DNA of 64,000 nt from an uncultured Planctomycetales bacterium. GTDB taxonomy: Bacteria; Omnitrophota; Gorgyraeia; Gygaellales; Profunditerraquicolaceae. The first letter of the stretch is position 1. Each line of letters begins with the position of its first letter. The stretch lies in the NCBI GenBank assembly GCA_964545575.1, contig CAZJFL010000001.1, positions 153,896 through 217,895 of the forward strand, written 5' to 3'. Of this stretch, positions 901 through 60,900 are shown piece by piece. The notes beneath the pieces were generated by a model. The model did no database searches, was not told the DNA's origin, and saw only the letters and a list, made by a program, of their open reading frames with translations. The position numbers and the translations under genes were made by a program.

Positions 901-3900
901 CTTCGGGCGAGCGGGCACAGGGGCGGCGGGCGGCTGTAAAGGTAAATCTTGATTAATCACAGAAGTAAGATATCCGCGCAATAGCCGGCAAAACGGATCA
1001 TCATCGTCTGCCTCCTGCGACTCAAAAGGATAATCTTCTTTTAAACCATAAAATCCTCCATTATCATCATACTCTTTAAACTTCTGCAGCAGACTCTCAT
1101 CGCTTGTAATATGATTATCCTCAATAAATCTTTTATTTAGTATCTGCTTAAAGCCTTCTAAGCCACCCTCTGACTTAACAACATCTTCATCGGCAAATTG
1201 ACCTATCGTTCTATCTAAAACATACCAGCGCGAATCGCCTTGTATTTTCACCTCCACACAACTATGCCTCCTTATCAAACCTGGGTTTTCTTTCTTTGAA
1301 TCGTAATAACTTACTCTGACCGCTGTAATAAAATCCTCCTTTCTGAACCTATCGCAAATAGCATCTTTCCAATCTCTGCACCATCCTCGTAGCTGACGGC
1401 CCCTTTTACCCCTAATAGGCTCTTTGCATCCAACAACTAAACATTCTCCAAGAATAAGTTTTAGGGATGGCCAGAAGGGATTTTCCTTTAGCGGCGCAAG
1501 GGCCACGAAATCATCGCTGGAACAGGATTCCCGCCCGCCGTTTGCGCCGCAGCCGGGCGCAGGGGCGCGGTTAAAACGGTCGCGTTTGACAAAAGTGCAA
1601 ATAAAGGTGAAGCTATACAATACTACCAAGCAGTAAAGCGGCAGATCGGTCAGCGCATAAAGATAGGCCAGGATAATCAAGGGGATAAAATTAAGGCGGG
1701 TGACGTACCAGATGTTTTTTAGCGGCGAGGCTTTAGGCATCTGATTAGTCCTTAAGAAATGCAGAACAAAGAAGAGCCCCCAGGCAATCACCGTGGCCAG
1801 GCGGATATCCATAAAGAAAGCTAAGGCTAAATTCAGCCCCCAGAAAATCCCTTGCTCTATCCGCGCCTGTTTTTCCAGAGGAATGCCGTGCTGCATCAGG
1901 AAATAACTTAGGGCCGGGATCATACCGGCGCCAGAATTATTATCTTGTCGCGACGCTTGCGGCTCGGGCGCAGGGGCGGCGCCCTCCTCCCGGCCGGCGG
2001 CACCGCTGCCAGGCCGCGGCGCCTGAGACTGATATTTATCAATCCTTACCGCTAAGCCTAAAACCCTACCCTCTTTATCCCTGTTAATGTTTTCTAGTAG
2101 ATGCGGATTTTTCTCAATAAATGATTCCTGTAATCTCTGGGCTTCTGGAGTATTTAAAACAGGAATATGCAGGCTAATACCGGGGATCTCCCCTATATAA
2201 AACTTTCTTACGCCTATCTTTTTCAAATAAGCAAAAACCTCATCGCGCAACAGGCTACCTATACCTTTATCCCGCCAGTCGATGCTCACATAGATGCCGT
2301 CTCCGAAGGCTACGATTGCCTCTTCTAGCGCACAAACATAAAATTGATAAGCTGCTACCGGAGTATTTTTGATAAAGGCGATTATTGCATCCTTACCTTC
2401 ATAGCCGACCTTGGACTTAAACAAGCATACCGAGGAATAACGCCCGAAGAATGTATCGCCTGCCATGCTATCTGACAAATCTTCGGGAAGTTCGCTTAAA
2501 AGATAAAATCTTAAATCCTCAATTTCATCGCTCCGGCCAGAGTCGAGCGCAGGGGCAGCGAGCAGAACGGGAGACTCAGTGTCCCTATAGAAGATTTTTT
2601 CCCAGAACCTGGGGTCAGCCTCGTAAAGAAGAAACTCTTCGTCCCTGTCCAATACAAAGACGCTTTGTCCGTGTTCATGTTTTCTGATCAGGTAATCTAT
2701 AACGCTGGCAAAGAAATCTTGTTCCTCTTTAGTGAGGGGGTCATTTTTATTGAAATACGAATCGCCAAATACATACATCGCAAACTTATCACAAAAGAGC
2801 TCTTCATCAATATCCAGTTTATAGCCGTGCTGGAGGTGTTCGTCTCCTTGATTCTTTCTCCAATCAGAAAGAAAGCCTTCTCTCTTACAAGCTGAGCCAA
2901 ACCTATGCCTTAGTCTTTGCGGTATCAATAAATAAAGCACGTATCCGACCTCATGGTAGAAGCCATGCTCTTCTATGCTGAAAAATATTTCCTCCGCATC
3001 CTTATCTTTTGGACTTAGGCCTAAAGAGTGAAAGACCGTCCATAAAGCATTTACGCCCTGATCAAAAGTAAGGTCGAGGAAGTTGATTTCTGCAAATATA
3101 CGCTTGCCCTCTGCAATATCCATCGCTGCTCTTACCATGCCTATGGGAGCCCGGTTCACATGAGCATCTTTAGTTAAATTCGCAAAATTATAAGTTAATC
3201 CTTCCTCGAATATAAACGGCAGAATACGATAAATCCTTTCTGCCCAACGCTGTATCTGTCGCGGACGGAATTGCCTGATAAAACCTGCGCGCGGGCTGTC
3301 CAAAGGCACCGGTAGGCCAGAGTGAGATTCAAATTCTCTTCTTAGCCTAACCATAAGTAAGGCCATTACTTCTTTATCCAGTCCTTGCCGAAGCAAAGAT
3401 TCCTTTACTTCTTGAAACATCAATCGCCTGATATAATCCTGGCTGCCGTATCTGGCTTGGGTGCTTTGAATATAATTCCTATCATCCGGCGTAGAAGCAG
3501 ATGATGGTTCAGCAGGGGCTATCCCTGCCCCTCGGCTTCTAATAGGTATAGCGGGGATGGTTTTAGTCTTTAAATCAAACCTTAAGTCTCCTTCTTTGGT
3601 CGGTTCAAACCCAAGCGGGATATAAAAATTTTCTGCCTTCCCCTTAGCCGGCGCCAAAATTAAAAATTCACTGTAGCCATAATGTGTTGTTAACTCTAAC
3701 GCTTGGGTAATTAAATTAGAGCCTATGCTGCGAAACTGGTATGCGCTATCTACAAAAATGCCTTCCTTGGCTATAACGCGCCCTTTACCATCGTAAGCAG
3801 TACCGACTAAAACGGTAATGCCATCATCCATCAGGGAAAAATGGAGATAGCCGATAGCCTCACCGCCATGATTAACTTCGATTATCCCAACGCTCCTATG

Positions 3901-6900
3901 CGAGCATCTATTATCGTTGATGGCGATACTCCGATAGCAAAAATCAAACTTCTCCCCGTCTTCGGAATTAATAGTCAAGCGGCCTTGCCTGGCTAAAGTT
4001 TCCCCTATAGATAAGCGGTTAGTGGCGCGACTCCCCTTGCGCTCTGCAATAACTCCCGGGCAGCCGGGCCGAGTTCTTATTTTTCTTAAAACAGCTAATA
4101 TTGTATTCCCGGTAACCGCATAAACCCACCTTGTACCATCGAGGACTTCTGCCTCGTATACGATAGCGACTAATTTTCCTTTATAGAATACTGAGGCGCC
4201 GCAAATCCCACCGTGGTTTATCTCGGTACCGGTCGTATCTATCTCCAGGATATCCCTTGAGCCGTCGCTACAGAGCACTCGGCGTGCAGGCACGGTAACT
4301 ACATCTTTATAGCAGAATCTATTTCCGCTCCTGGCCTTACTGTAACGTATGAATGGGATGACTACTTCAAATTCGCCATCAAGGGGCGGAACGCCTATCT
4401 CTAAAGAATCAAATTCGGTAAGGTAATTCGGCGCAGGCCCTGCTGGGCCCGCAGAGGGGGTATAGGAAATGCTCGAAATGTATATGACCCCGATATCTTT
4501 GCCGGACTCATCGCAACAGGCCAAGATCCTTCCCATGGCAAAAAGTTTATCTTCTGTAAATTCCGCCATGACCAGGTCTCCCGGCTTCACCCGATGCCCC
4601 ACGGTCAAGACAAAAGCCGCATCCCTGGTTGATCTGATAATCGTCCCCTGATATAAAGTACTCTGGTCTACATCCTCCAGCCCAAGGATGCGCCGTAATG
4701 ACCTGTTTCTTTCTTCGCCTGCGACAAACCCTCCGTCTCTTTCCTCTGCCACCTGCGGCTCGGGCGCAGGGGTGGCGGCAGGCGATAATTTAGGATCGGG
4801 TTTAAACGCTACAGCATCACCTATTCCCTCATAGCCTTCTTTTACCCACTTCATGCGCAGTGGGAGAATGTCGTTCTCTATCCCTTTCTTTCCTCCTTCA
4901 TGCAGGCTATATATTAATGAACGAAGGCTATCGCAAAATTCATCAAATTTCATATCGCAGGCATGATCAGTTATACAACTTAATTTTCCTTCATATTGTA
5001 ATGTAGAGAAGTCTATAAGGAGGACCTTTCCGTTTGTGGTAATGAAAATATGCCGTAGGCTAGAATCGCCGTGAAAAATATGTAGTTCGCGATTAAGGAT
5101 CCCATAGACTCTGCCGATTTCCCTGAAAAAATATCTTTCGTTTGCTAAGAACATCTTGCGGTAATATCGATTACGACGATGCTGATCATCTATAACTTCT
5201 TCGAGGGAAAGGCCATCGCTGATCTCGCGGATTAGTAAAGTGTCCGCCACAACAACGGACGGCGGCGTAATCCCTCTCCGGGAAGCCTTGAGGGTTATTT
5301 TGTATTCGAGTGCGGTGGGGTTACGACGTTTTAGATTTGATGAATGGCGTAGTTTTGCGTAGAAAGATACTGGTCCTTTTTCTGTAGTAAGGGTAAATTT
5401 AAGAACGTATCCGAATATATCTGCTCTTTCGTATAGACCTCCTGGCCCTTCTTCTCCCGCAATCTCATGGGTGCTAGCCAAGATCTTTTTTACTCCGAGG
5501 AACTTTTTAATCGCTGCTTGCTTGTAAAGTATGCATTGTACTTTCTCAGCTACAAACGGTTGCTTTTCCTCATCTACCAAAAGCATTCCAATAAACCGAC
5601 TTATCACCGGCGGAGCGCGGGGACGGCGAGCTCCAGCCATCAATAGCCCGCCGACCAAGAGGCCAAGGATAATTCCTGCCAGAATCGGATTATATATTCC
5701 GTCGGCAAATAAAACCAAAAGTACGACAACGGCAGGCAAGCGGGCAATGGTGGCAGATGAATTTGTGCTGCCGGTTTGCGGCGCCTGCGGCCGAGCAGAA
5801 TCTGTGGGCTTGGCGCGGTCAGGGGCGGCCGCAGGGGCGGCGGGATTTGACTCTGACCAAAATGCCCGTAAATAACTTATAGGAATCTCTGGGTAGCGAT
5901 CGTATAAGACCTGATATTGCTGCTTGATCTTACGCAGGCGTACAAGGTCTGTACTGTCTAAAGAATATAACCTTATTTCTTTGACGACCCTTTTCGCCTC
6001 TCGATCCTGTATTAAAGGCTCGAGTGGCCTATCGTTAAGCTTGGCGACCAGCAGTCTTTCAATAAGTTTGAGTCGGTCTAAATCCCCAAAGAAACGTTCA
6101 AACTCAAAATCTTCTTTTCCAAATAACCAGGCCCACTGCAATGTCGCTTTGATCACCTCGATATGCGCGTGGCGAGTAAAACGCACAAAAATCTCATCTA
6201 CCAGGTCTGCCTCATCTACCGCCGCCTCAAATACCTCATGCGCAAAAGTAACCGGCGTATTTACGCTACCCTTAATATAATAAATACCCGACCCCTGAAT
6301 CTCGGGGCAGGCGATAATAGCCCGGAGTTGTGCCGGTTCGAATACGCCAGCGGAATTCCTATCGCGATAATATTTAACTCTTTCCCATACCTGAGAGTTA
6401 ATGTAAATCGCCTGCGTATGCAGATTATAGTCGCCACTTATTTCTTTGGCCCCTAATCTCCTGCCTAATTCAAGCGGATTTTGATTTAGAGAAGGCGCTT
6501 CTTCCAGGCGAACGGCCTGTGCTAGCTTGCGCCAAGCAGTGGCTATGGCTTCATCTATTTCCGGACAAGAAGGAAATAGTCCTTTCCACTCTTTTATAGG
6601 CATACTCCTTCTCTTTTTTGGAACAATTGGCGCCAATACTTCCTGACTATTATCACCCATGTTAGGTAAATGAACGTGGCCCGGCGCAGGGGCGGTAGAC
6701 GGTACGGCTGGAGACTTCTCCCAAATAAAATGCCATGATCCCACAGGCTCATTCCTGAACCCTCGCTTCAGATAAAAATCAGCCATTATCTCATCGGGTT
6801 CTCGGCCACTTTCATCTTGAACAAGAAAAAGAGGAGTATTAATCAAGGTAATGCGGCTAAATTTATTTTGGCAGAATTCTATTAAGGATCCGGCTATACC

Positions 6901-9900
6901 TCTATTGCGGTATTTTGGATGGACAAAGAAATCATCGAGAGAGACTGCATGAAAATCTTTCAGTGTATATACCAGATAACCAAATACTGTTTTGATTATT
7001 GGATCGACAGCTGCAATTAAATGTGTTATGCCACTCAGTAGCTCTTGGGTTCTACTTTCCAGAATATCTAAGTCAGAGTAACCAGGATCAATTGTTAATG
7101 CCTGACCGATACCTTGTTTATCGTATACAAAAATTATCTCTGGTTTAAGTCTTTCTCTCCCTTTTGGCTCAGGGTAAACGGCCACAGGGGCGGCGGCTCG
7201 ATTTTGCTCTGGACAGGCAGGTGAAGATAATCTCTTTACAGAAACATAAGACAATATTTGTGTACCGGAACAAACATCAACCCAGTCTAGGTCTACCGGG
7301 AAACGCTCAGAGAAATCTTGCCTGCGCCAGAATCTACGCGTGTTTCCTTCATCTACGCATGTGCCGTGAAGTAAAATAATATCAAAACCGCATCTTCTTA
7401 AGTATGGCTCAATAACTCTGCTATACCAAACATAACCTACTCCTTTACCGCGTAAAGAAGAATGGATCTCAAGCTTTTTTATAACTGCCATCCAATTAAG
7501 ATTGTAATAAGACCTTACTGATTTTTGACCGCCTGCGATGCCATGTATCATGTGCTCGTGGTAAGCGCTCGCATCGTTCCATAATACATCCCGAAGAAGA
7601 TCGTTAAGTTCACAGTCACCGTAAGCGATTCCCAGGGTATTTTCTACGCAGAGAGTCAAAGAAGCTGCTTCGCATTCCTTTTCAGCGGCCTCTCCTTCCC
7701 TCTTAAATAATAAGGAAAGGCTTATTTCGCCTTCTTTATAGACGGCTACCCGCGTTTCTAATCTTCCCTTCTCGCCTGTATCATCCATTACTTTTTTGAT
7801 TTCTCGGTACGGCAAAAGGCTATCTGGAGCAATTGTCAAGTCAAACTTTGGTTTTCCGCGCGCATCCTCTATTCTATCGGCGGGCGCAGGGGCGCTGTCG
7901 TCTTGCCTGGCCATTGCCAGCTCAAAACCAACAAAGCAGCCCATTGCGCCGCCTATAGGAGGAACAGGTGCATGATAGGGTAAAGCCAGCGGCACTATGA
8001 TGGTTCCGGCATAAGGATTACGCGAATTATATATATTTCGTTTTTCCGGGTCACTAAGCACCAGATAAGCTTCGATAATCTGACGCATGATTTCTCCCAG
8101 GCGCGCATCACTCTGGCAGATATCCGGATGATAGCGTTTGGTCAATTTTAAAAATTGCCCCTTAATCTCATCCGGAGCGGCATCCTTAGTAACCCCTAAA
8201 ACCCCGTAATAATCTTTTTTGTAATCCGCCTGGACGCCTGCGAATAAATCCCGATACTCTTGTTTAAGCCGCTCGAGCCACTTCTGCAATTCCCGTAACA
8301 TATCCTCGGCCATTATCTGGTCTCTAACCGCCTGCCGTAATAAAGCAGCGCTCTGTTTATTTGAATGCCGGGCATAGATATTTAAAAATAAACCTATAAC
8401 CCCAAAGATACCTCCTAAGATACCGAATAAAAACATAATCTCTCCCAGAGACGGCGCGCCTGTGGCGCCGACGAAACTGAAGACTATAAGGGCACCAAAC
8501 ATGGCCAAGAGGATGCGCTTGGCATTTTTATAGAGCCAGATGATCGGCTTGACTACCAGCCATTTAAAGACCAAGCCCGCCAGTGCCGTTACTCCGCTTT
8601 CCAGCAAACCTCCCTTTTCTCCCACGCCGGGTATCTTATCCGTTGCGTGTGAAATTGTGCTCTTGATGATATATTGTGCCAGCTCCGGATGGTCCTTACT
8701 GATCTCTAATGGCGCAGCTGCCAGGCCAAATGTCGGGACCAAACTCCAGAAAAGAGCCAAGAAATACTTTGGCCTGAAAGCGAAGACGATTAAAGAAACC
8801 ACAAACCTGAAGGCAACATCAATCGCCTCAGGGATTAACCAGCCCCACTCCGCCTTCCCCTGAAAAATCAGCGTCTTCAGGAATGCAACCATTCCTCCGG
8901 CTCCGACGATGGGCGGATTAACCACGCCTAAGACCCCCTTGAGAATTACATGCAGGCCGAAAAGAATAATCATATCGCGGTTATCTTTTGCCTCCATTTG
9001 CCGCCTTAATGATTGCGCTTCTTTTTCATCCAGCCGCCCGCTTTTTAAATCTTCGTCTATCCATTTATTGATGAGCTTTTTGGCGTAGACCAGGATCTTA
9101 TCGGGAATGGTCCTAACCCAGCGGAATATAGTAACGAATTGGTGAAATAATGCTTTTATCTTCCCGGTAAATAGATAAATCAAGGCCTGCTTCAAATGAT
9201 ACAGGGTTTGTTTGAAGGCGTAGTGAAAAGGAATGCATAGCGCCCTGACTTTAACATCAATATAGTCGCATAATTGCCAGAAAAGATTTAATAAATGCCG
9301 GGGTAAACTTTTTAAGGTCCTAAAGAGATACTCCCAATCAAAATGCAACGGTTCGCTTTCCCGCCACATTTTCAGGTAATACACCAGCCTCTGGAAATCC
9401 TCTTCTCTGCCAAGTTCGAGATGGCTGTCCACGTAACGCTTCAGCCGCTTAAGCGCTACTAAATCAGCAAAGACCGGCGAGCGACGGTTCAGTAAACCGA
9501 TGACCCAATATTTTATCTCCCACGGAGTCGCCACCACCGAACCCACTAAATCCATTATCCTGAAATCCCCTCCGGCGGTTTTTACGATATTGGCGAGGCT
9601 GTTCAGGTTAGCGCTATCTATCTGGCGGCCGATGCCGATAAAACCTAATTCTCTGACTAAGAAATCATAAAAATCAGCCGCCCTGTGCCTGAACTCGCTG
9701 ATATCAGAGAAACTATGCCGAACGATGCGGCACCCCTCCAGAAGCTGAAATGCCTGGGCATAGCAGCCGGCTTGGCTGTCATAATAAGTAAAAAGTAATT
9801 CCGGCGTTATATTTGCGCCAAATTCCTGCCTGAAGGCGCGGACAATAATCCTGTTGGAGAAATGGTTAGCCAATACTGCCCAGAGATTATTTTCATAGGA

Positions 9901-12900
9901 ATAGGGGTATCCCCGCCAGAGCCGGAACCAGAACCTGACCAAGGCAATGGCTATCTTCTTGGCGGTAGTCTTGGGCCAGATATGATAATATTTCACCGCA
10001 AAAGTCCGGTCGGCGGTTATATCTTTGGCCTTATATACCGTACCGGAAAGGCCCGCGCCCAGTTCGCCCAGTATCTGGATGGTAATGTTACCGGCTCCGT
10101 AAGTCCGGATGTCCTTGACATCTCCTGTTTTCGGCTCTACGCTGCTCACTTTTCTTCGGTCTAATGGCGTAACTACGTCAATAATCTCGGTGCTAAAATC
10201 TGAAGCAATCCCCGGTACCACTGGTTCACTTCTATCATCCGCAGATAACCGGTAGTCATAATGCAGGCCGAAGAAACGCATCACGGAAAACAGCAATAAG
10301 GCCGGGATATAGAATACGGCCGATTCGGCAAATTCATAGACTGCACCCCAGGGGTAGAAGCGGCTGCGCTTTAATAATTCATCACAAAAGTACGCATACC
10401 ACTTCAAATGCCCCTTAAGGTACGGTTCTTTTTTATAGCCGTTCTCGGCAAAGAATTTTAGACTGAAGGCGCGCCGGACAATCAAGTATTTTGTAATTTG
10501 TCTAGAGATAGTTATATTTGGCGTAAGATAAATCGTCCTGCTGACGGGGATATCTTTGCCTCCGAAAATAGCAACCATCGTGTAATCTGCGCTTAGCCGG
10601 ACATCCTCAGCCAGCGCAAGCGCCGCAAGCAATTCTCTATCGCCTGACTTCTCTGCCTGTTGCTTTAGTTCAACGCGGACTTCCCTGATACGTTCTTCAG
10701 GGCTCTTTTTTAAATATTGCGTCAATCTTAAAAATGCCGGAAGGTCCGTAAACGGGAAGTAGCCGATTAAAGGCAAAGCGGAAATAAAGACTAGAGTGCC
10801 AAACACGACCATACTCATAATGCGCAATGGTGCGGGGGTACATAAAATAAGGGCAATGAGCGCGAGGGGGATTAAATTGAGGCCTACGGCAACAAGGATT
10901 TTTCTCGCCCAGTCCGGCTTCGAATTCTTGCCCTGCCATCCAGAACCATCCCTGAGGGCGGATTTTGTTTTAGCTAAAACGATAAAGGCAGAATTGATTT
11001 CCTCAACAGTCAACCTGCTCAGGTCTTTTAATACCATATGCGCGCCAAAACTACGCAATGTCTCTATATCCCCTAAGCCGATAACCAAACCAAAATTACC
11101 GGATATTCCGGCCTTAATATCAGCATCGGCATCACCGATAACTATGGCCTGTTCAGGGGCAACGCCCATTCTTTTGGCAGCAAGCAGAAACATCTCCGGG
11201 TCAGGCTTGCCTCGCTGGACATCCCTACTTGTGATTACCACATCGAAGTTATTCTTTAGGCCAATCTTCTCTAAGATTTCCGGTGTAGCATCAGAGCCAG
11301 AACCAACCACCAGCCTAATCCCTGCCTCGCGCAGCCGGCTTATTAGCGCAAACGTTCCCTGGATTTTATTAACGCCTCTTAACTCTAGTAGCTGCATATA
11401 ATATTTCTGCCGCTCTTGAGCCATCAGTAAAACCTGAGCATCAGCCAATCCGGGAAACATCATCTCTATAGAAGTAGTTTCTTTCCTACCGTTAAGCCGC
11501 TCTTGAAAATATTGCATAGTTACTTCCGGGCCGCGGTGGGCCTCAGAGAGCATCCGCCAAGCCTGGAAATGCTCCTGAACGGTATCGATGATCACGCCAT
11601 CACAGTCAAAAATTACGGCCTTAAAGGAACTGTTCGGGGATAACCCTTCAGGGGACGCTTCTCCGATTGGCACAGGGCCTGGTCCTGCTTTGGCGCGAGA
11701 ACTGTCCCTGAAGAAAGTAAAGAGCCCGTAGGCCAGCGCTAAGAAAACTAAGGCAAAGAAGATAAAGTACGGTATCGCCGGGCGCGTAATCAAAGCGGCT
11801 AAATCTCGAGCGATAAATTGCCAGGTGCCGCTCTGAGTAAGAGTAATTTTAAAAACAGTAAAATAAGGCCATAATTTCAGCATTAAGGAATCAGAAACCA
11901 GCAACCAGCCGAAAACAAAAGCGCACAAAACCGCTGCCGCCGCAAAAGCATAGTAGGTAGGCTTACGCTGGGATTTAAAAACGGTTTGAACCATTCCGCG
12001 CAGTTCATTAAAGCGGGCAAGGAATTCGCCGCAGAAACCTTGATATTTGCGATGTAGCGGCTCATGGTAATCTCGGATGGAAATCTGGAATATTTTCGGC
12101 AGGTATTGGAACGCGGGATGTTGTCCTTCGGGCGTAGCAATATAAGTAGTTAACGCAGGCGGGCCTTTAATCAAACCGGCTTTTTTGGCATAGATCCGGA
12201 ATGCCCGCAGCACAAATAAGCCCTTTACTACAAAAACCAGACCGGCCAAAGCAACTAATACTGTCAGACCTAAACAGATTTTTCCTAACTGGGGGACGCT
12301 GTATACGAAGCCGGCCGCCACCAGAAAAGCAATGAAGGCAAATCCGAAATCCTCCAGCGCAGCGGATTTAGCACTTGCCGCTTTTAACCGCCATGGTCTT
12401 AGGATAAGAGCCCCTCTGCTTTTTTTCTGAATAATCATTTTAACTGCTGAAGAAATATCTATTGGCTTGCCACTCTTCTTGATTGCCTTATTTATCGCGG
12501 CAGAGGTCCAGCCATAACTGATAATCCGGCAGGCATCCCTATACTTTATTCTGGCTTCATCTAAAGCCGCCAAGCCGGCTTTTAATCTTCCCGTAAAAAC
12601 CTTAAACGCCTTACTGCCCAGCCAATCTGTATTATTGTATTTTATACGTTGCCTGTCAGGACGCGAAATTAAACCGTTCTCAACATACTTCTGGCGAAAA
12701 TAAGCTGCTTTATTTAGCTCTTTTACCCTGCGCTGGCCCGCAACATTAGCTACCACGGTTAGATTATCAATAATCTGCTGCGCTAATGTTTTAGGCAACC
12801 TCTCGGCTCTCAACGCCCGATAGAACTTCTTTCTAAATTCTGCTTCTGCTTTTTGTTTTAAAGAAAATCTTCTACTCCTAATCGTGCTTTCGCGGAAAAG

Positions 12901-15900
12901 CTTTATTTGTACTTCCCGAATAAACTTTTTCACAAGTTTATCTCGTTTAAAAATTTCCGGATCCAAGGTTAACCTTACTAACATCCCCTTAACCAGGGCA
13001 GGGTTAAATTTAAGACTCTGGAAAAATTGAAGATCAGACCAGTCAAGACGCGCGCTTACCGTTCCGCAGATATTGAGAGAAATGCCCGCCCTCCCCATCG
13101 CCTCTGCAAGAGCCTCTAAATTAATCCTTCTCGCATCTTGCTCTTCCGGTTCCGGCGCCTGCTCCGGCAGAAGCAGCTCAGGAACCAATCTCTCCAGCCT
13201 GGCAACTAATCCTTCCAGCAATTTCCGCAAGCAGCGGTCCTGCTTTTTTAAACGCCTGATCATCTTGCGCAAATCTCTAAGCGTCTTCTGGGAATCAAGG
13301 ATTCCCGTATCGGTATCGCTGTCTCTGATGCTCTTGCCACTGCTATCCACTAATTGAAAGCCTTCTAATTCTCTAGCTTCCGGTGTTTCCTCGTCTCCCT
13401 CATCTTCTAAAACCACCGGCTCTACCTCGTCATCAACCGCATTGGCATCTTTATCATCGTCTGGCTGCTCTTCTTCGGATTCAAGCTCTACATTTAATAT
13501 TTCAGCTGCCTCTGCTACTACCCGGGATAATTCGGATAAATGCAATCCCTCTGCCCTCTGCTGAATCTCTAATAATAAAATCTCATCCGGCAACTCGAAG
13601 ACAATATTTACCGCCCCGAGAATAATATCTAAAATCGGGCGCGGGACCGGCTGCTGATTTATTTTTCTGGCCTTAGCCCAAGCCTCGTATTGGCTCCACA
13701 AAGAAGCATCCTGGCTGGTCTTTAAGGTGCTGGCCCAAAGCATAGCCATGTTTTCCTGATCAGAAGAGCCTTGCGCTTCTAAACGGCGGGCCTCTTCCAT
13801 CGCACCCAAGGCTGCCTTAAACTGCTTAAGGAATTCCGGTTGAGCAAGAATATACTCTAACAACTGCCTTAATCCTTGCGGCCCGGGCAGCGGAGTAAAA
13901 ATCACTTTGCCCTTTAGCTCCTTAGGCAACTGGTTTTCCTTTAATCTTCCGGAATAGACCGCGGTAACCTGCGGCAGGCCGAGCATCCCGAAGTCATTCG
14001 GCCCGTCGCCGGAAACAAAAACTTCTGCCAGCGGAATTTTCAGGCGTTTGGCTAAAGCGGCTACCGCATCTTTTTTATCCACCAGCGCCACATCCACGGC
14101 AACTGAGGAATAGACAATATTCAACCCTTGAAGGCCTTCTAGGCATACCTTCAGTAACTCGACAAAGCGCAACAATTTAGCGCGCAACTCTTCTTTAGTA
14201 AAGAATAACGAAGCCTCTGAATATTTTTCGTGCACCTCTAATCCCCCCGAGGTTAGAGATTTTTCCAGGCCTAAGCTGCGCGCCGTATTTTTTATCTCGC
14301 CAACTATCCGCTGCCTTAAATCATCCGGCATTTGGCGGCTTAAATCTTTATCTAAAACCAAATCTCCTTTTTGGTCAAAATGCCAGACACAGCCGCCGCC
14401 TTCGGTGAGAATATGGATTTGCCGGCGGTATTTGATTCTGGCCTTCAGGGGAATGCGGTCGCAGAATAAGGTTTTTAAACCCGGCATGCTTCCTACTAGC
14501 CCCATTGCCCGGCCGGTAAGCACGGCAAGGTGGCTTTCCTGCTCTAATGCGTTAACTAGCAGCGCCAGCATTTCCGGAGAAATCGCCTCACGAAAATCCG
14601 CCAGATTATCATCATAGTCGTGAACATAAAGCTTAAACGCTTTCTGCCCATCGGCAGGATATCCCCTGATATCTATACTTAATCCGCAAGGAACATCGCA
14701 CAGAGTAAAGAGATAATCCGGCAGATATCGCTTGATCGAATCGGCTAAGCGCTTCTTCCACAGCGAACCCTGGGCTGACCTTAAGCAGGCCAAGAAATAA
14801 TCGCGCGCCAACATTACCCATTCCAAGAGCCGCGGCAGTATCGGGCCAAAGACGCCAAGGATACTGGCGATAGTGGTGATGATAGTGGTGGTGGTTACCG
14901 CGCTTAAGCCTAAACCAAAGCCTTCTAATTCAAAGTGGCGCGTCATTCTGGCGCGTTCCCTCTCTTTGGCTTTCCTAAAAGCCGTTGTTCTAAGGTCTCC
15001 AATCGTTTCTCTGTAGCGGGCAATCCTTTCCCGCAGCCCGCCGTTATCCGCAGCTGATATCCTAATCCCGCACAATAGCCTTGCTGCCCGGTCAAAATTA
15101 GCTACTGCTTCTGCGATATCCGGTTCTACTAGAAGGTCATCGGGCTGAAGCTGCCATATCCCTGCGTTAATAGCAATATCTATTTCTGCTGTTAAGATGT
15201 GGTTATTAATCGTTGTCCTGTAAATCGCCTTTACCTGTTGGCAGGTCATTTTGGCACCATTAATCTGATGAGTGGAGAAGGCCCGGGGAGGCATGCTGTC
15301 CAATATTGCCTGTGCTTGCCTAAATTTGCCGAGGGCTGCCTCTGGATCTTTGACCAGCGCTGCTAAGCCTTCGCGAATAAGGATAATCATTTCCATTTTG
15401 CTGATGAGAATAGCTGCTTCGGCCTCGGACTTCCGTAATTCTGCCGCTATTTTTTGCAACTTAATGTAGCGGCCAAAGAATGCCGCCTTCTCAGCAGGAA
15501 TGATGGTTTCCAAAATCTCTTTGGCTTGCTGATAGCGCGCCAATTCCGCCCTTAATTCCTCCAGAGTCTTCTTGCCGTTTGCCTGCTGCGTGGGCGCTTG
15601 CTGGAGCTGTTTAGCCATTCTAAGCTTACCAAGGATAGCTTTTAATCCCTCATAATCCGCGCAGATCTCTTTTTCTATAAAATCCCGCCAACCGCTATAC
15701 ATTACCACCTTGGTCCTTGCTTCTTTAATGAAGCAATAGAACCTGCCGCGAAAAGTAAAGCCTAAATTTTGGATGCTAAGAGTCAGGTTTTTGGAAATCT
15801 CCTCTATAGCTTTACTGACTACATATTCTTTCCTTTTCCATCTATCTTTCTCTTGGGGCAGAGGTTTATATTTCAAGCCGGCTAAGCGCGCTGCCCGGCG

Positions 15901-45900: not shown

Positions 45901-48900
45901 GTGGACCGCTATATATTCTACGATTTGCTTAGGGAAAAATTTACTGTCAACCATAAGATAATAACGCCCGTTACTTAAAAACCCTCCGGCATGTTTCTTC
46001 TTCCACCAATATTCTATAAATAATGTTTCGCCGGCATAATCTTTTTTTATCGGCGCGGCATAGTCAAAGGATAAGCCGTGTTTAGCGTAATGCCTGATCC
46101 CTCCCGGCCGTTTTGCCACCCTCTCCCAGATCCGCGGGACTATTATTTTTGCCAAAGTATTCTCAGTTTCAATGTCTTCTATTTCTGCGTATAAATCGGA
46201 TAGATCGTCAAAAACTTCTTCGCCTTCCCCTTCCTCCGATGGCGCTTCGCCGATTGGCCCTCGAGCTTTCACTACTTCAGTAGGGACAGCGGAGGCATGG
46301 GTGACCCTTTGTTCCTCAGGGTAAACGGGCGAAGAGCCGCTGCCTTTACCCTGCCGCACCATCATCACCGCCACAGCGCCCAGCACAATCAGCCCCAGCA
46401 CCGGCAATACCCAGGGTGCAAGATGCAACGCCTTAGCCAGCGCCCCTAATATTACCGAAATCCTAAAAGGCGCAAAGGCAGGAAGCGTTGTTTTCGGCGC
46501 AGGGGCGGCAGGCTGCTGGCTAACAGAGAGCAAAGAAGAAACAGTTGGATCTATCTCCTGCAGGGGAATAACCTTAATATCTGTCCGGCCGTAGTTCTGA
46601 AGCAATACCGAAACTATGCCAATATATTTTTTATAGGTTGCGACAATTTCAATGGGCAATCTCTCTACTCTGTCCTCAAATACATGGTCTCTATGCAATA
46701 TGCCTTCTTTTATAGCCCAGTTGTCATAATCAGCCACGGGCTGGTCTTCTACCGAGAGTCCGGCTACAGAACCGATAATAATAACCGGTATCCTGGAAAG
46801 CTTATTAATCTCAGCTTGCGCATCCTCTGATAAATCAGCAAAATACCTCTGTATTTCAAGAAATCTGTCTAGCGCATTATTCACAGTTTCATCTGTAAGG
46901 TCACGCATAAAGGCCTTTGTCCAGCTCCTGACTTTTTCGTCAATATTGTCCGGAGCAATTCTATAACAAAACTGGAAGACCGTATCCCTTTCTGCGCTAC
47001 ATTCCGAAGCGTATTGCAGCGCCAAAACGGCATAATTATGTTTTTTATTTTTCATCGCCACTGATAAATTTATGGTCGATACCATATTTTCGGTTGTACC
47101 CGTAATAGCAAATCTTTCTCCCGAGAAAACTAAAAGTCCCCGCTTTAGAATCTCCTCTATTGATAGTAACGCTCCTGCTGTGGTTTCAAGTGCCCTCTTG
47201 AGAGCAAATACGTTAGTGCCATGGGCGTGATATTCTCTTGCGCTACGGCTGGCGACACCTTTACCTTGCTTTGCTATCCACAGCGCCGGAAACGGCAGGC
47301 CGAACGGCAATAACTCAAGAACTCGCGAACCCAATAACTCGCGAACTAACGCCGGCGGGCCGGTAGTAAAATGGCTAGCTAGCTGCTGCAGAAAATGCAG
47401 GTGAGAAACGGCAAATAAGGCTGTGCTGCTGATCAGCCCGATAACTAAAATTACGCCCAGTAATCCGATCATGGCAAAACCGCCAGGCGTAAAGCCCTCT
47501 TTGGGCTGGGGAGGGTCGGGGGAATCTTCGTCCTCGTCCTCCGGCACCACCTCAAAGCCGATGTTAATCTGATTTTGCTCTGTGGTATCAACTATCAAAT
47601 ATAATCTCATTCTTTGTTGCCCTAAGTAAGGCTTAGCTTCTTCAAGTATTTCCCAGCGAGCCCCAGGTAATGATTCCTCAAGCAGTATCCCTAGTTCAAC
47701 TAGCTGCTGCAGCACATCCTCAAGAGAATCTTCGTCTGAGAAAATACCCGCGAATTGCCAGAAACCGTTTGCGATACCTAATAATCTTTCCGTATATGCG
47801 CTTTTAGATATCGGCATTTGCGATATCGCAACTAAAACTTGCACCAATTCGGTTTTACAATATGCGTAATAGTCAAATCTCCGCTCACAGGCAAGCCGAT
47901 GGGCGACGTCCGGAGGAAGGCCTTGTCTTAAAGAGACCCATTCTGAGAATTCATGAGCGGCAACTTCTCTGCGCAATACCTGTGGAGTATCCTGATCAAA
48001 CAAGAGCCAGTGGATAGTAAAGATAAACTCCCCGTCTTCTTTTCTCATCTGAAATAAATCTGTATCTTTTTCGCCGACGATGACGGCCTTTACTCTTTCT
48101 CCTAATATCCCGCTATCAGGGGAATCATCCGACTCAGCGGGATAAAAATCATCCAGCAGCTCCTTAACCCAAGCGGGCAGGAATATTTCATCCTCGATAT
48201 CGAGCCCTTTTACTTTCTCCGTAGGCATTTTAAAAGTACCGCTTCCTTTTTCTTTAGTTAAAATAACTCTGGGCTTATCTATCTGCTTCAGGGATTTCTC
48301 GGCATAGGCGCGCGGCCTAGACATTTCTTTCTTATCTCTGGCTTCTTGGATAATCGCCGATTCTAATTGCTCAAGTGTCATTCCCGGCTTAATCAGGCCG
48401 CGAATCATCCTCGAGTCTGCGGTTGGTAACCTCTCTTTTTTTATCCTCGGCTTCATCCAGTAGTACATTGCTTCGGCGATACTCTTCTCTAAACGCTCAA
48501 TTAAACTCCGGAACACCCCCACCACTGCTTCTTCTATCTCTACTTTTTGTAATTCTGTCATGAAGGACCGTGAAAGCTTGGAGAAATCCACCACCTCGTC
48601 TACCCGTTGATAATTTTCAACTATATAATAAGTGATAATCTCCAACCAGATCCTTTCCTTTACTTCCCGAGCCCTCCCTCCTTCTTCCAGCGCATTCTTC
48701 AGAACCCAGGAATCATCTTTAGGGTAGAACCCTGCCTCAGTCAGCGCCGCTTTAGCCCGCTGCAGAAACCGCTCTGCAGCTATTCTCAGCAGGACGCGCC
48801 ACCCCTGCTCATCCCCGCCCTGCATTGCTTCTTTGACTTCGTCCAGAGAAACTTCCGCTAACGTCCGGAGCCTCTGCTGAATCGTAGCGTATTCTTTTAC

Positions 48901-51900
48901 GCAGCGCCTTCTTTCTATCCTATAGGCAAGATACCTAAAATATCCCGCCAGCTCAGCAGAAGGGAGCTTATCCAAATCTATGCTATCAATAAAAGCTTTT
49001 ACTTGTGTTAAAAAGGTATCAGGAGCAGTAACCCAGTCAAGGCAAGAAACAAATTGCCTGATTGCCTCTGAAAACGCCTCCCAGCTGCCGTTTGCGCCTT
49101 TATTCTTTCCCTTCCCTTTAGGCAGTTGCTCCCATAACCTTTTGATGATATCAAATATCTGCGGGTAGCTAATCCGGGCGAGGGCTGCCGGACAAAGCTT
49201 TATTACTCTGAGCCCCTTATCAAAATTACCCGTCTTTAAATAGGCACGAAGTAAATCCTCACCTAGGCAGGGATCATTCACTCCGGAAACTAAAATCTCA
49301 TTTAAATATCCCTCGGCTGCTTTAATCTCTCCCTTCTCTAATAAATAGGCGGCAAGCTCCAATCTAAACGCTATTCCTTTATCCGAGGTCAACTTTAAAC
49401 CGGTTTTTAACATTGTTAAGGCTAAATCTACTTTGCCTGCCGCACGATAAGCCCTGCCGGCGGTAAAAAGAAGTTCCGAGGCCGCTCTTTTTTGGAATGT
49501 TTTCGTGAGGTCGGCCATATTTTTGACTTCTCCGAAAGCAACCACAGCCAGGGCTAAAGATTCATCTGCCATTTCTTTCAACCCGGCGGTTTGCCCTTGC
49601 TGCAGGCGAATCTCCGTTATATCCCGGATCACCTCTGCTTTCAGGATAAGTAGTGAGGAATTTTCTTCCTCTTCAATCGCCTTATCCATTAATGGCAACG
49701 CTGATTCTAATAGCTGAAGCGCTTCTGTCAGCCGGCCGTGGGATTGATGCAGCGCTGCCAGAGAGCGCATTCCCTCGACCTGGAGATCTTCGCCGGCTTC
49801 TGCTAAAGCATCTTCAGCAAGAAGCCTTATGGCTTCCGCTTCATTGCCGAGCGCAGCGCAACAAATCCCCAGAGTCACGGTAATAATGGAATGGGGCACC
49901 TCTTCTTGCGCGGCAACTATCGCCTTACGCAAAGCATCTGCTGCCTGCTGATACTGGCGCCGGCGCAGAAAGTACATCCCTAAGCAAAAATATGCCTGCT
50001 CCATAACCTTAGCCCTTTCCTGCTCATAATAACGGCGCGCCTGATCTTTAGCGTCTGCGGGAATTATTAAGGGCGTCTCTTGCGCCTTTAAGACATATCT
50101 TTCTGTTTCCGGATAAAAAATAACCCCGTCTGACACTGCTTTTTCATACCAATAGTGGGCAATGCGTTTATAAGCAGAAGCGAGAAAATTAGGCGTGATG
50201 TACTTGCGGGCCTTCTCAGCATTAAGTTCCAAAAAGGTAACTACTTTCTTAAGATAGCCGATGGCTTTGTCGTAATCACCGAGATTGTAATAACAATGGC
50301 CGAGATTATAATTGCACATTGCCAGCAACGCAGAAACGTAGGTACTTTGCCGGAACTTTCCGGCTAGATTCTCTACCTCGGTCAGATACTTTATTGCCTC
50401 CTGAATTTCACCCAAATCAAGGCATGTCCCGCCTAAATTAAGGTAGGCGCGCATCCTCTTTGCATCATCGGTAAGCAGGCCGAGAAGCTCTAACAACGCC
50501 GCCTTTTCTCCCTGGCGATCCTCAACAGAAAGGCAGGAGGCGGCTTGAGCAAAGAGCTCTTGAATTCTATCCTTTGTCCCCAGCTCCTTAGCAAGCTCCC
50601 CCTTAAGAGTCGTAATCAGTTTGGTTAATTTGTTAGGATAGGCCACGCGGGGCTTTGCTGCCAGCTCTACTTGATTTAATAAATCTTCGGCAACCTGATA
50701 GTTTATTCCCGCAGCAGAAAAGGCTTTCACTAATACTAACTGAAAGACCATTAAAGCCATCTCGTCTCCTGTGTTAACTTTTGCTACCATAATGCCTGCT
50801 ATCGGCTGGAGTTGCTTTTGCTGAATCATAGCGGTGTATTCTTCTACAGTCAGTATCGCCTGCTGTCTCAATAGACTCCTCAGCGCATCTTTTCCTGCTC
50901 CTGATAGGCCTAACATAATCAGCAAACCGGTAATAGAATTATGGCCTATCCCAAGAAACGCTCCGATAAGAATTAATCCTGCCATCTGCGGCTGGGCGCG
51001 GATAAAACTCTCTAAACACTTTACAAAAGTCTTTAATAACTTAGCAAGAATACCCCAGAGGTATACTATTAATCCATAGCTCCATTGACGCACACTAAAC
51101 ATATTGCATACAAGAGCGCCGAGGAACAGGCCGACAGCAGCACCAATACCCGGCAGGCCCCACGCCATATAAGCAATCACTGCGCCGGTAAAAGCTAGGG
51201 CAATCGGAACGCGCATATTCGCTGTAGCATCGTTGATACTTGCGCGCTTCATTACTACCCCGGTTTTCGAATGTAATAATTTCTCTCTTTGCTCTCCGCT
51301 AAGGTCACGAAAGAGTATATGAGGCATAGTACAAAAGTTGAGATAGAGAGATAAGGGCGAGCCGGCAAAAGCAGGACCATAAATAATTAGGCCTTGCAAG
51401 AAAGGTGTTGGTTTCTCGGTATTTGGCTGTAGTTGTTTTCTTGCCGCATCAACTATATCCTTCGCCGCTGGATTTTCGGAATCTACAAGCAGCACATAAG
51501 GATAATCAATCTTCCTGGAAGTTAAATCTTCTGCATTTGTTAGCTCAATAACCCGGAATCCTTTTTGCGGCTGGGCAATCGCTGCCGTAGCTACGGCAGG
51601 CTGAGCTTCTTTTTGAGTGGGCGGCGCTGTTTCTACTCTGGCCTGCGAAACCTCCACTTCGACCTGCTGGGGCGCGGCTAATCCCTCTTTGATCCTGCTG
51701 ATAAGACTAGCTAGTCTGACGGGAGTGGCTTTTAGTCCGCTATTTTCTCGCGCTGCCTCTCTTTCTATATAATCAAGTATCGTAATTTTATCGGCATAAC
51801 GCATCCAGGTAGCTGTAAAGTTAACTGTATTAAAAGCTATTATCAAATTACGTATAAACCGCGCGGTATCTGGACAGTTGGGGCAATTGGCTACATTAAT

Positions 51901-57900: not shown

Positions 57901-60900
57901 AGACAATATCGCTCTCACGCCCATCTTTTCACCCGCGCCCGGAACAACGCCGGCGGGCTCAACTTGTGTATTTCTTTTAACCAGTTGCAAAACCTGAGGC
58001 ACAAAATCCTTAGGCAGTTGGCCTTCGTATCTGCGTAAGGCCTCCTCAATTACGCCTATCTTGACATCCGGGTCTTTCTTTAGTATAGAAACGAGGATTC
58101 TGCTTACATCGCGCGGATAGGGAAGGCGCGAATTATCAGCGGCACAAATCTCAAAAATAGTTTCCACGACTAGCATTCCTCTTTTTTTGCCTCCCATTTC
58201 AGATAAAGCGTCTGCTGCGGGATCACTCCAATTGCATTCATTAGCCCAAGGGCCGCGATAAGAACTCCACAACTCTTTAGCTGCCTGCTTAACCAGCGCA
58301 TCAGCCCCCGGTATTCTCGCTACTACCTGCGCCAGAGCAGGTATTATCCGAACAAGACAAATATTATTCCAACCTTCCTGAGGATTTACAAAAGCGCCTG
58401 CGCGCCATAACGTTAAAGCCTCAAAATATGCCTCGACTGCTCTCTCGCCCCCTATTTTAGCTAAGGCCTTAACTGCTGCCTCTTTAACCGCGGTTTCCAG
58501 GCCTCTTACCGGGTTGCGGCATAAAAAGTATTTCAATCTACTCACCGCTCTTTCATCCCCTATATTACCAAGCGAAGAAATTGCCGCAGGGATAAGCAGC
58601 CGCTTATCTTGCTCTCTCTTTAAAAAGCCTAACCAAAAATCAAGCAGCGCTGGATCGCGCATATTAGCCAAAGCATCTGCTGCTTGCAAATAGGCTTCAG
58701 GCAGGCTTGTCCCAAGCTTCAAGCCTCGTCTCACTATTTCAATTAAAGAATCAGCTACTGGCGCCCCGATTTTACTTAAAGCCTCTGCCGCAGCCTTTGA
58801 TAATCCATCCCTGATATCAGCCTTAGAATCATCCTTTAGCTCAAGCATATTCTTCTTTAAAGCCTCCAATAAATCTTCCTTTGCTTCCATAGCACGCAGT
58901 TCTCCCAGCGCCTTGGCGCTGGCAACAAAAGCATCCAGGCCTTTATGAGCCAAAGCATAATTACTATTGTGCATACTCTCATTCAGGCTAAATTTCAAGC
59001 ATTCCAGCAAAGTATTGATTATTCTTTCTCTTATTACCAGCCTTATTTTAGCCAGCGTAACAAATTTCGGAATGACTGCGCTATCTACAGTCCGCACAGG
59101 CTCCTGGCGTAAGGGAGACGAATCGTGCTGCACGTACAAGGCAAAGAAAAGGCAGCTAAATCTATAAAGTGCATCCGCCTTAAAATGATCCCCAACCAGA
59201 TGCTCAATTGCTTCGTGGATCAATATTTCTCCTAAATCGGGCTGTTTATCCGGCGCCTGGAGGAGGCTGTAGAAATCATGGCTGATGCAGAAGACAACCT
59301 TAAGGAGACCTTCTATTTCTAATTCAACTAAACCTGAACGATAATCTACTCCTAAATCCACTACCCAGACTTGATCGATACGCTCAGGCAGGGCGAGCTG
59401 ACCTTGCGGACCAATCACTTCCCCGCAGATCCTCTTTAGCATAGGCCCGGCTGCCTCAAATTCTTTATTAATCATCTCTCCTAAGGCCGAAGTAACATCC
59501 TGTTGTTTCTCTGTGCCGATTGTCTCTTTGATAGCGGCGATAAATTCATCCCTGGTGCCGGGAAACGCACCATTATGGCCCTGACAAGGAGCAGAGGGGC
59601 CAGCTGGCGTCCGGCGGCTGGGGTCGGCGGCGGGCAATGAGGAAACGTTCAAGCTCCTCGCCATAGGAAAGATGAAGTCAAAGAAACTATCATCCGGGCA
59701 CCCATCATTAAGCTGCCTTGTTGTCCCGAAAAATCCTAGTTTTTTCCAGAACCTGCTCGTCTGCGCAATATTATTACATGTCCCCCAGAAAACAACGACT
59801 TGGAAACCGCATCGCCTGAAGTAAGGCGCAAGGTGATCCTCAAACCATAGCCTACCGATACCTTTGCGCCTTATTCTTTCATCAAGCCGATAATAAGTAA
59901 TCAAGGGTATCCACTTTAAATTATGATATGTGATTATCCACATCCTTCCCGGCCTGACAGCCGTACGTACGCTCTTTGGTGTCCAAAGCAAATCTTTTAT
60001 TTCTTTGCCATACCATTCAAGTGGCTGAGCATCCTCTTGCCCAACACCATCGATTTCTAATTTGTTTGTAGCATCCACCTCTACTTCAGCTATTTTTCCA
60101 CTTGATCCCCTCCGTCTAACTGTTATATAAGCTTTACGCTGTTCAGTAATTTCAGCCTCTACTTTAAGCTGTTTTATCCCCACGCCCAAGGCCCGGGCGA
60201 TTTCCTTAAGAGGAGCTAAGCTTTCCAGGGGAATTGCGCTATTAAAAGTAATCCTCTCGGAAGAACGTAACTCTAACGCCGTAACAAAATGGGACCAGCC
60301 GCCGCAAAATAACATCTTATCCATAATTACCTGTGTCATCTCCGGCCGCTGCAAAGCGCAATCTGCCAGAGGAACTAATGCCTCATCGAGACGCCTCTTA
60401 AATTCAGTTATCTCGGACGCATAACGCCTTTCATGGTCAGACTCTCGGTTATGGCTACACAAAAATTCAGAATACTCCCAACTTCTTTCACGATAAACAG
60501 CGATCAGGGCATCGACATCAACCACTGCGGCGACTGGCTGCCGACCGGCGCGGGCAGGGCCGCTGTAAGCCTCCACCACCTCTGCTACTGTTTCTTCCCT
60601 GGGTTTCGCAATATAAAATTTCTGCCTGAGGTCAAATTTTAAAGTCGCTGCCAATGCCGCGGCTCTTGTGTGGGCAGCGCTACCTTCAAGGCCTTCCTCG
60701 ACCCTGGCTAAGAAATGTCCTATTTCATGCTTTAATATTTTTTCGCTCCCCCCTTTTTCGACGACAACAGAAAATACGTACTTTTCAGACGACCGCCACA
60801 TTCTGTAACTATCTTTCACCAGCACCCCGCCGCCCCACCTGCTTAAGCGGCCTGGTGAAAATTCATAGACTCGAATTTGATAGCTATCCTTCTGCCCTTT

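Follow-up and report, generated by a model that had tools for sequence, protein, structure and literature searches.

Giant bacterial open reading frames (ORFs) with 20,000 to 150,000 codons raise the question of whether their products act as one chain or as cut pieces. One such ORF fills a 64,000-nucleotide (nt) stretch of contig CAZJFL010000001.1 (assembly GCA_964545575.1, positions 153,896 to 217,895) from an uncultured bacterium of the Omnitrophota; the whole stretch is referred to below as the window. A first-pass annotation of the window had reported at least five HExxH zinc-peptidase motifs and a transglutaminase-like Cys-His-Asp core along the ORF and had proposed them as candidate self-processing machinery. 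The observation was largely right, and the HExxH set is not a product of chance. The interpretation was partly supported, and self-processing is not new as a concept. We consider it rather probable that two of the motifs, HELQH and HELVH, are genuine zinc-metallopeptidase-type sites inherited in fused-in modules, and that the product is a multienzyme chain in which these zincins are cargo.

Only one of the six frames of the window is open: the minus-strand frame at offset 1 runs through 21,333 codons with 0 stops, and the remaining five frames contain 689 to 1,531 stops each. The ORF is open at both window ends, so that the gene exceeds 64 kb. When the GTDB representative genomes were searched for exact DNA matches to the window end, none was obtained. 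Its translation, numbered below in amino acids (aa), contains five strict HExxH motifs, while 0.39 were expected from the composition (Poisson P = 5.4e-5). Shuffling within 200-aa blocks never yielded four or more (0/1000), and permuted control patterns (H..EH, H.E.H, H..HE, and others) occurred 0 to 2 times. All strings quoted in the first-pass annotation, as well as its Cys-His-Asp pattern, were found in place in the minus-strand translation. Five strict motifs thus do exist, but one of the listed strings, HEAIEH, is HExxxH, and HEPLH had been missed. The extended zinc-protease signature, which we take to be PROSITE PS00142, was matched in the ORF only by HEFGH and HELVH, its expectation per protein being 0.016 analytically and 0.0175 according to local shuffling. 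The metzincin extension (HExxHxxGxxH/D), with Gly at +3 and His or Asp at +6 after the second His, is missing from all five sites, and a metzincin assignment was rejected for each. Since this extension is lacking, a Met-turn, which had been suggested as a check, is not expected at any site, and the check does not apply. Searches of Pfam, NCBIfam, and PHROGs with 400-aa and tighter segments around each motif returned M48 only.

The M48 match corresponds to HELQH, the region of which scored 31.8 bits against PF01435 (cutoff, 20.3). When PDB sequences were searched with phmmer, LAHELQH was aligned to LAHEINH of the solved M48 protein 3C37, and the downstream stretch ADRLKEYEAD...GYYP...FFQNL was aligned to SREYENQAD...GYNP...FFQKL, the segment in which M48 peptidases have their third zinc ligand. 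An exhaustive HMMER search with aa 10400-11599 retrieved 274 proteins at E <= 1e-3. In a 117-sequence alignment of the HELQH region, H11060, E11061, and H11064 were kept in 117/117 sequences, and H11069 was kept in 108/117; further downstream, conservation was 104/111 for R11092, 109/111 for the putative third ligand E11095, and 108/111 for D11099. At the level of sequence, HELQH was thus confirmed as the predicted active site of a divergent, soluble M48-type domain (HExxHxxxxH ... RxxExxxD), which forms the N terminus of a module of approximately 1,630 aa. The domain resembles family M48 (HtpX, BepA, Oma1, and the soluble 3C37) in its HExxHxxxxH motif, which is followed approximately 30 residues on by R-x-x-E-x-x-x-D with the zinc-binding Glu, and in scoring above the Pfam gathering threshold. 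In contrast to that family, it has no transmembrane (TM) helices inside the domain and invariably occurs in fusion with a C-terminal ABC1/UbiB-type kinase, from which a long middle region separates it.

This fusion is not confined to the giant gene. About 80 of 116 homologues are 1,300 to 1,800 aa long and carry the M48-like domain at the N terminus. According to Pfam, proteins P0001, P0009, and P0038 consist exactly of an N-terminal M48 and a C-terminal ABC1 domain, and the M48 scores of free-standing homologues are 38 to 46 bits. P0001 is the product of a stand-alone 1,650-aa ORF that has neighbors of its own (locus L002, 6884-11836); the sole related locus belongs to a metagenome-assembled genome labeled Actinomycetota. 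The free-standing family, in which a long unannotated middle region separates the two domains, comprises approximately 80 representatives at 50% clustering, and we found no published description of the M48 plus ABC1-kinase architecture. Since aa 10964-12596 are collinear with these proteins, we regard this part of the ORF as an in-frame copy of a complete free-standing protein. A word-indexed protein search with aa 10560-11300 gave no matches. That search missed homologues of 38% identity (e.g., P0001), which were recovered by exhaustive HMMER, and its empty results are therefore weak evidence of absence.

Directly upstream of this module lies the domain with HELVH. In the same HMMER search, 33 proteins (34 domains) matched aa 10500-10930. 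The residues H10678, E10679, and H10682 were conserved in 35/35 sequences, and E10705, located 22 residues past the second His in the context L-x-E-A-x-x-E, was conserved in 34/34. Furthermore, Y10760 (33/34) and E10763 (32/34), as well as G10788 and G10798, were conserved. An invariant HExxH with a Glu 18 to 30 residues on, in the next helix, is the ligand arrangement of gluzincins, and the pattern is like that of M1 aminopeptidases, M30 hyicolysin/lugdulysin, M9 collagenases, M3, and MATCAP. Ten family members showed no consistent Pfam match, no NCBIfam family matched, the family profile found nothing among PDB sequences, and the word-indexed search with the family alignment retrieved nothing but two sequences of that alignment. 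We read the HELVH domain (approximately 350 to 430 aa) as a new gluzincin-like family with the signature HExxH-x22-E plus conserved Tyr and Glu, for which we infer peptidase activity. The third zinc ligand, which the first-pass annotation had left to be checked, is thus conserved for both HELQH and HELVH.

The HELVH domain was also modeled with AlphaFold2 (AF2) from a 14-sequence alignment (predicted local distance difference test [pLDDT], 87.7; predicted template modeling score [pTM], 0.86). In the model, two long helices at the N terminus are followed by a small sheet (strands 126-129, 146-152, and 157-164), then by the helix with HExxH (170-185) and by a long helix bearing the Glu (197-223). 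A gluzincin-type fold is moderately supported by this prediction; a Foldseek search of the PDB with the model gave nothing below E = 0.3. Members of the family also exist as free-standing proteins of 460 to 560 aa (e.g., P0007, locus L001) and within larger multidomain proteins. One such carrier, P0020 (3,964 aa), has a GHKL ATPase as well as an intein splicing domain (PF14890, 80.7 bits); the window itself yielded no intein. Profile hidden Markov models of the HELVH and M48-like families, run over the whole ORF, revealed no further diverged copies of either domain; at HEFGH and HEIGH, they matched at the level of the motif only.

Neither homology nor fold confirmed the latter two sites. HEFGH lies in the context VLFHEFGHRP, has Glu residues 18 to 21 positions beyond its second His, and is probably a zincin-like site, judging from the extended signature. 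HEIGH, in which a Lys at -1 breaks that signature, is less surely so and is a possible zincin-like site. HEPLH also fails the signature; with a Pro within the motif and hydrophobic segments on either side of the loop that contains it, it is probably a chance occurrence and the likeliest one among the unverified sites. Given the 0.39 motifs expected, the probability that at least two of the three unverified sites are due to chance is ~6%, which makes one or two genuine sites among them probable.

HEAIEH was rejected as an HExxH site, since it belongs to a triplicated domain of approximately 170 aa. Its region aligned to two paralogues within the window (z = 5.6), and the three copies share the pattern H-E-x-x-E-x5-H (HERGEALFDSH, HEKGEELFGDH, and HEAIEHLVGDH), with H81, E82, E85, and H91 of the alignment invariant, while conservation does not extend to the second His of HEAIEH. 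No Pfam, NCBIfam, or PHROG match was obtained for this domain, which may be an unknown metal-binding domain. The pattern HE..E occurs seven times in the ORF (approximately 1.9 expected).

The Cys-His-Asp core was placed by the first-pass annotation at 1150-1480 of the window. The triad C20874, H20912, and D20929 (window 1213-1380) indeed falls within these limits, in the segment GWCRDWKDAICDRFRKEDFITAVRVSYY...RRHSCVEVKIQGDSRWYVLDRT. Pfam found nothing in the isolated core, even at E = 10, and PF01841 did not match. A Smith-Waterman comparison with the solved core 3ISR gave z = 6.0, with 1/1000 shuffles scoring as high and with Cys, His, and Asp aligned; in plain Smith-Waterman, an unrelated segment near aa 15400 scored equally. 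When a two-sequence profile of the solved cores 3ISR and 6G49, which were retrieved with a bait sequence, was scanned over the whole ORF, the top match was aa 20872-20931 (profile positions 3-67, triad aligned). On the isolated region, it scored 10.8 bits (P = 2.4e-5); the runner-up in the ORF scored -0.8 bits, and correction for the ORF length gave an E value of approximately 0.006. The candidate shares with transglutaminase-like cores (PF01841; 3ISR and 6G49) the order and spacing of G-x-C-R-D ... V-S-x-Y ... H-x-C-x-E-V ... W-x-x-L-D-x-T but, unlike them, lies below detection by the Pfam model. Of the proposed papain-fold core, the order and spacing of the triad and the targeted profile match held up; Pfam, PDB sequences, and fold prediction lent it no support. 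The segment is probably, although weakly supported, a small transglutaminase/papain-like domain.

Pfam domains tile the full length of the ORF and include enzymes, repeats, and winged-helix domains. In addition, a crude hydropathy scan detected 58 strongly hydrophobic 19-residue segments, which are clustered between the soluble domains. The first-pass annotation called bacterial polyproteins of such a size essentially unknown, a remark that is outdated: for Omnitrophota, giant ORFs that encode numerous enzyme domains and TM helices in 30,000 to 147,155 aa have been published, and cleavage by embedded peptidases (C39 and S8) has already been proposed for them (West-Roberts et al. 2023, bioRxiv 10.1101/2023.11.21.568195; Nielsen & Lui 2026, bioRxiv 10.64898/2026.06.07.730766). 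At more than 10,000 aa, and tiled by numerous different enzyme domains and TM segments, the ORF described here matches these giant proteins in its build. It is like them in being a single ORF of more than 20,000 codons with unrelated enzyme Pfams (glycosyltransferase [GT] group 1, GNAT, HAD, and HEAT/TPR), dozens of hydrophobic segments, and essentially unique sequence, and in containing peptidase domains, which were proposed there to cleave the product. It differs from them in its peptidase-type domains, which are M48-like and of the unannotated gluzincin-like family, while the C39, S8, dockerin, and SecA-like domains stressed there are absent from the window. M48 is unmentioned in the 2026 text (bioRxiv 10.64898/2026.06.07.730766), and the 2023 text has no match to "zinc" and one to "metallo," which refers to an M36 domain (bioRxiv 10.1101/2023.11.21.568195). 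We conclude that the gene is of the TM-punctuated multienzyme type described for Omnitrophota, with whole proteins concatenated in frame.

A partly hydrophobic module of approximately 94 aa (FWPFGLGLSAATITTIITTITSILGAFGPILPRLLEGVMLARDYLLACLRSA...), termed R, is present in three copies. R1 and R2 share 156 identical nt, which points to a recent duplication or gene conversion and not to selection of a cleavage site; the third copy, R3, has diverged (25 nt differences in 52 codons). Together, R1 and R2 bracket the 6.7-kb segment with the HELVH domain and the M48-ABC1 module, like direct repeats around a cassette. Outside the window, a 375-aa metagenomic fragment, P0016, contains the R module at 65% identity. 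Recombination that shuffles modules could explain the arrangement of the copies, as could a problem with the assembly.

Table 1. Features of the giant ORF (window positions; aa numbered along the ORF)
Feature	Window positions	Strand	aa	Remarks
Giant ORF, internal part	1-64000	-		At least 21,333 codons; TM-punctuated enzyme-domain chain
M48-like metallopeptidase domain	30463-31110	-	10964-11179	PF01435; 3C37 alignment; 117-sequence conservation
HELQH	30808-30822	-	11060	HELQH-IYSG-H, aa 11060-11069, window 30793-30822
Putative third ligand E11095	30715-30717	-	11095	In RLKEYEAD; D11099 downstream
Complete M48-like + ABC1-kinase module	26212-31110	-	10964-12596	Collinear with free-standing proteins of 1,400-1,650 aa
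HELVH domain	31210-32493	-	10503-10930	Unannotated gluzincin-like family
HELVH	31954-31968	-	10678	Invariant E10705 at window 31885-31887
HEFGH	40300-40314	-	7896-7900	Extended signature match
HEIGH	60715-60729	-	1091-1095	After beta-rich stretch; statistical support
HEPLH	12052-12066	-	17312-17316	Probable chance occurrence
HEAIEH domain	58960-59457	-	~1515-1680	Third in-window copy; HEAIEH at aa 1595-1600, window 59200-59217
HEAIEH-domain paralogue	45637-46143	-	5953-6121	40% mutual identity of the two paralogues
HEAIEH-domain paralogue	24439-24942	-	13020-13187	
Transglutaminase-like core candidate	1207-1386	-	20872-20931	Soluble stretch between two hydrophobic-segment clusters
R1	32512-32793	-	10403-10496	Hydrophobic/amphipathic module directly upstream of HELVH domain
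R2	25801-26082	-	12640-12733	Directly downstream of M48 + ABC1 module
R3	14653-14934	-	16356-16449	Diverged third copy
PGK	61243-62088	-	638-919	Pfam, 152.7 bits
GT4 glycosyltransferase		-	~9181-9345	Pfam
ARMT1-like phosphatase		-	9506-9739	Pfam
Peptidase_M48		-	~11019-11076	Pfam
ABC1 kinase		-	12279-12486	Pfam
HEAT repeats, TPR repeats		-		Pfam; in giant ORF
Winged-helix (wHTH) domains, HAD hydrolases (2), DnaJ, GNAT (2-3)		-		Pfam; in giant ORF

The HExxH motifs could be chance occurrences in a very long protein. Approximately 0.39 of them are expected anyway, HEPLH looks like such a case, and what speaks for HEIGH is its context. The count of five, the failure of any shuffle to reach four, two matches to the extended signature against 0.017 expected, and the invariance of H, E, and H across 35 (HELVH) and 117 (HELQH) homologues nevertheless make this extremely improbable. 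For HELQH and HELVH, the scenario under which the first-pass annotation would have been mistaken, chance motifs lacking a third ligand, is ruled out. A different objection is that the HExxH domains may bind metal and yet be no peptidases but HExxH-type oxygenases or hydroxylases, other hydrolases, or inactive scaffolds. The empty Foldseek result for the HELVH model and the lack of family annotation for this domain in Pfam, NCBIfam, and the PDB profile search fit this idea. We consider it unlikely, however, since HExxH with Glu at x22 and a conserved Tyr is the gluzincin pattern and the HELQH domain is above the Pfam M48 threshold with all three ligands kept.

Whether the zincins process the chain that carries them is a separate matter. 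On the self-processing view raised in the first-pass annotation, the embedded zincins and the transglutaminase-like domain would cleave the precursor in cis or in trans at module junctions and thereby release the enzymes. Indeed, the enzyme modules that make up the ORF, strung one after another, are the counterparts of whole proteins that stand alone elsewhere, two or more of its domains are truly of the peptidase type, HExxH is over-represented in large relatives as well (e.g., P0004, 6 in 5,935 aa versus 0.16 expected), and the idea has already been published for C39 and S8 domains. In-frame internal translation starts at module boundaries, which would be an alternative route to separate products, were rejected because Shine-Dalgarno-ATG starts show no excess (21 versus 21.2 expected). 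On the other hand, conserved motifs at the junctions, which the annotation had suggested looking for, were not found: a k-mer recurrence scan of the ORF yielded the three R modules and low-complexity linkers only, with no recurrent junction or cleavage motif. Members of both verified families are also found as ordinary free-standing proteins, and a conserved HELVH-M48 adjacency was rejected, because no other protein in the match set carries both domains. The papers on giant proteins referred to above give no proteomic evidence of cleavage. Taken together, this leaves self-processing at junctions as an appreciable but minor possibility. We know of no M48 or gluzincin family that acts as a polyprotein autoprotease, and we count this against self-processing, too.

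A more far-reaching version, which we find quite unlikely, is that the chain is a true polyprotein. After membrane insertion, its own zincins (M48-like, HELVH, HEFGH, and HEIGH) and the transglutaminase-like cysteine peptidase would cut out the enzymes, and the R module would serve as punctuation, as an insertion signal or recognition element by the peptidase modules. Viral polyproteins with embedded proteases are comparable in that complete functional units and protease-type domains are contained in one chain. Unlike them, the giant chain has different protease families and no conserved cleavage sites, it is encoded by a bacterial chromosome-scale gene with many TM anchors, and its cleavage is proposed only.

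We therefore return to the reading of the zincins as cargo. Because both families occur free-standing elsewhere, the HELQH and HELVH domains look like cargo and not like a dedicated processing system. In each zincin domain, two His and one Glu would coordinate a single zinc, and the domain would hydrolyze peptide bonds of membrane-proximal substrates. The domains would thus be cargo enzymes like the other modules; some of them may also trim the giant protein, as opposed to forming a dedicated, repeated self-processing system.

Several results weigh against this reading. The PF01435 match covers only approximately 60 positions (26-89 of 186), about a third of the profile, which is why we use the label "M48-like" and claim no full-length M48 domain. 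For HEFGH, no family or homologue was found in Pfam, NCBIfam, PHROGs, PDB sequences, or metagenome scans; for HEIGH, Pfam, NCBIfam, and PHROGs revealed no homologues or family, and the PDB search returned only a designed-armadillo-repeat artifact. The transglutaminase-like region has no homologues among PDB sequences, in the word-indexed search, or in metagenome scans (plasmid tblastn matches were noise), and its AF2 model is unreliable (pLDDT, 42), with no transglutaminase fold match. Finally, the existence of free-standing homologues would be compatible with fused copies that act on the giant chain.

With regard to the question of one chain or cut pieces, the window supplies candidates that can be tested: two verified domains of the zinc-peptidase type, their ligands named, two further candidate sites, and a possible cysteine-peptidase core. 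New are the unannotated gluzincin-like family, the incorporation of an entire M48 plus ABC1 module into a giant gene by fusion, and the exact residues for a test. The stretch of approximately 1,630 aa, a full copy of a free-standing protein, is direct evidence for growth of giant genes by in-frame fusion of whole genes. Moreover, two uncharacterized items matter outside giant genes, namely, the HExxH-x22-E family, which is covered by neither Pfam nor NCBIfam, and the conserved M48 plus ABC1-kinase architecture.

Some further observations concern other parts of the ORF. The PGK domain, which directly follows a cluster of hydrophobic segments, is matched at profile positions 8-263 of 379 only. 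GNAT-like paralogues with 28 to 30% identity were found at aa 1334-1470 and 18802-18940 (window ~59592-60000 and ~7180-7596) and also at aa 880-985. Each of them is followed by a Pro/Gly/Ala-rich linker, and the string SQPPAGPG occurs at aa 993 and 3286. The pentapeptide ARQEA forms a perfect tandem repeat of three to four units (window 21391-21441, aa 14187-14203). A pair of hydrophobic hairpins at aa 4265-4314 and 7124-7167 (window ~51058-51207 and ~42499-42630) shares 45% identity, which suggests reuse of TM anchor units.

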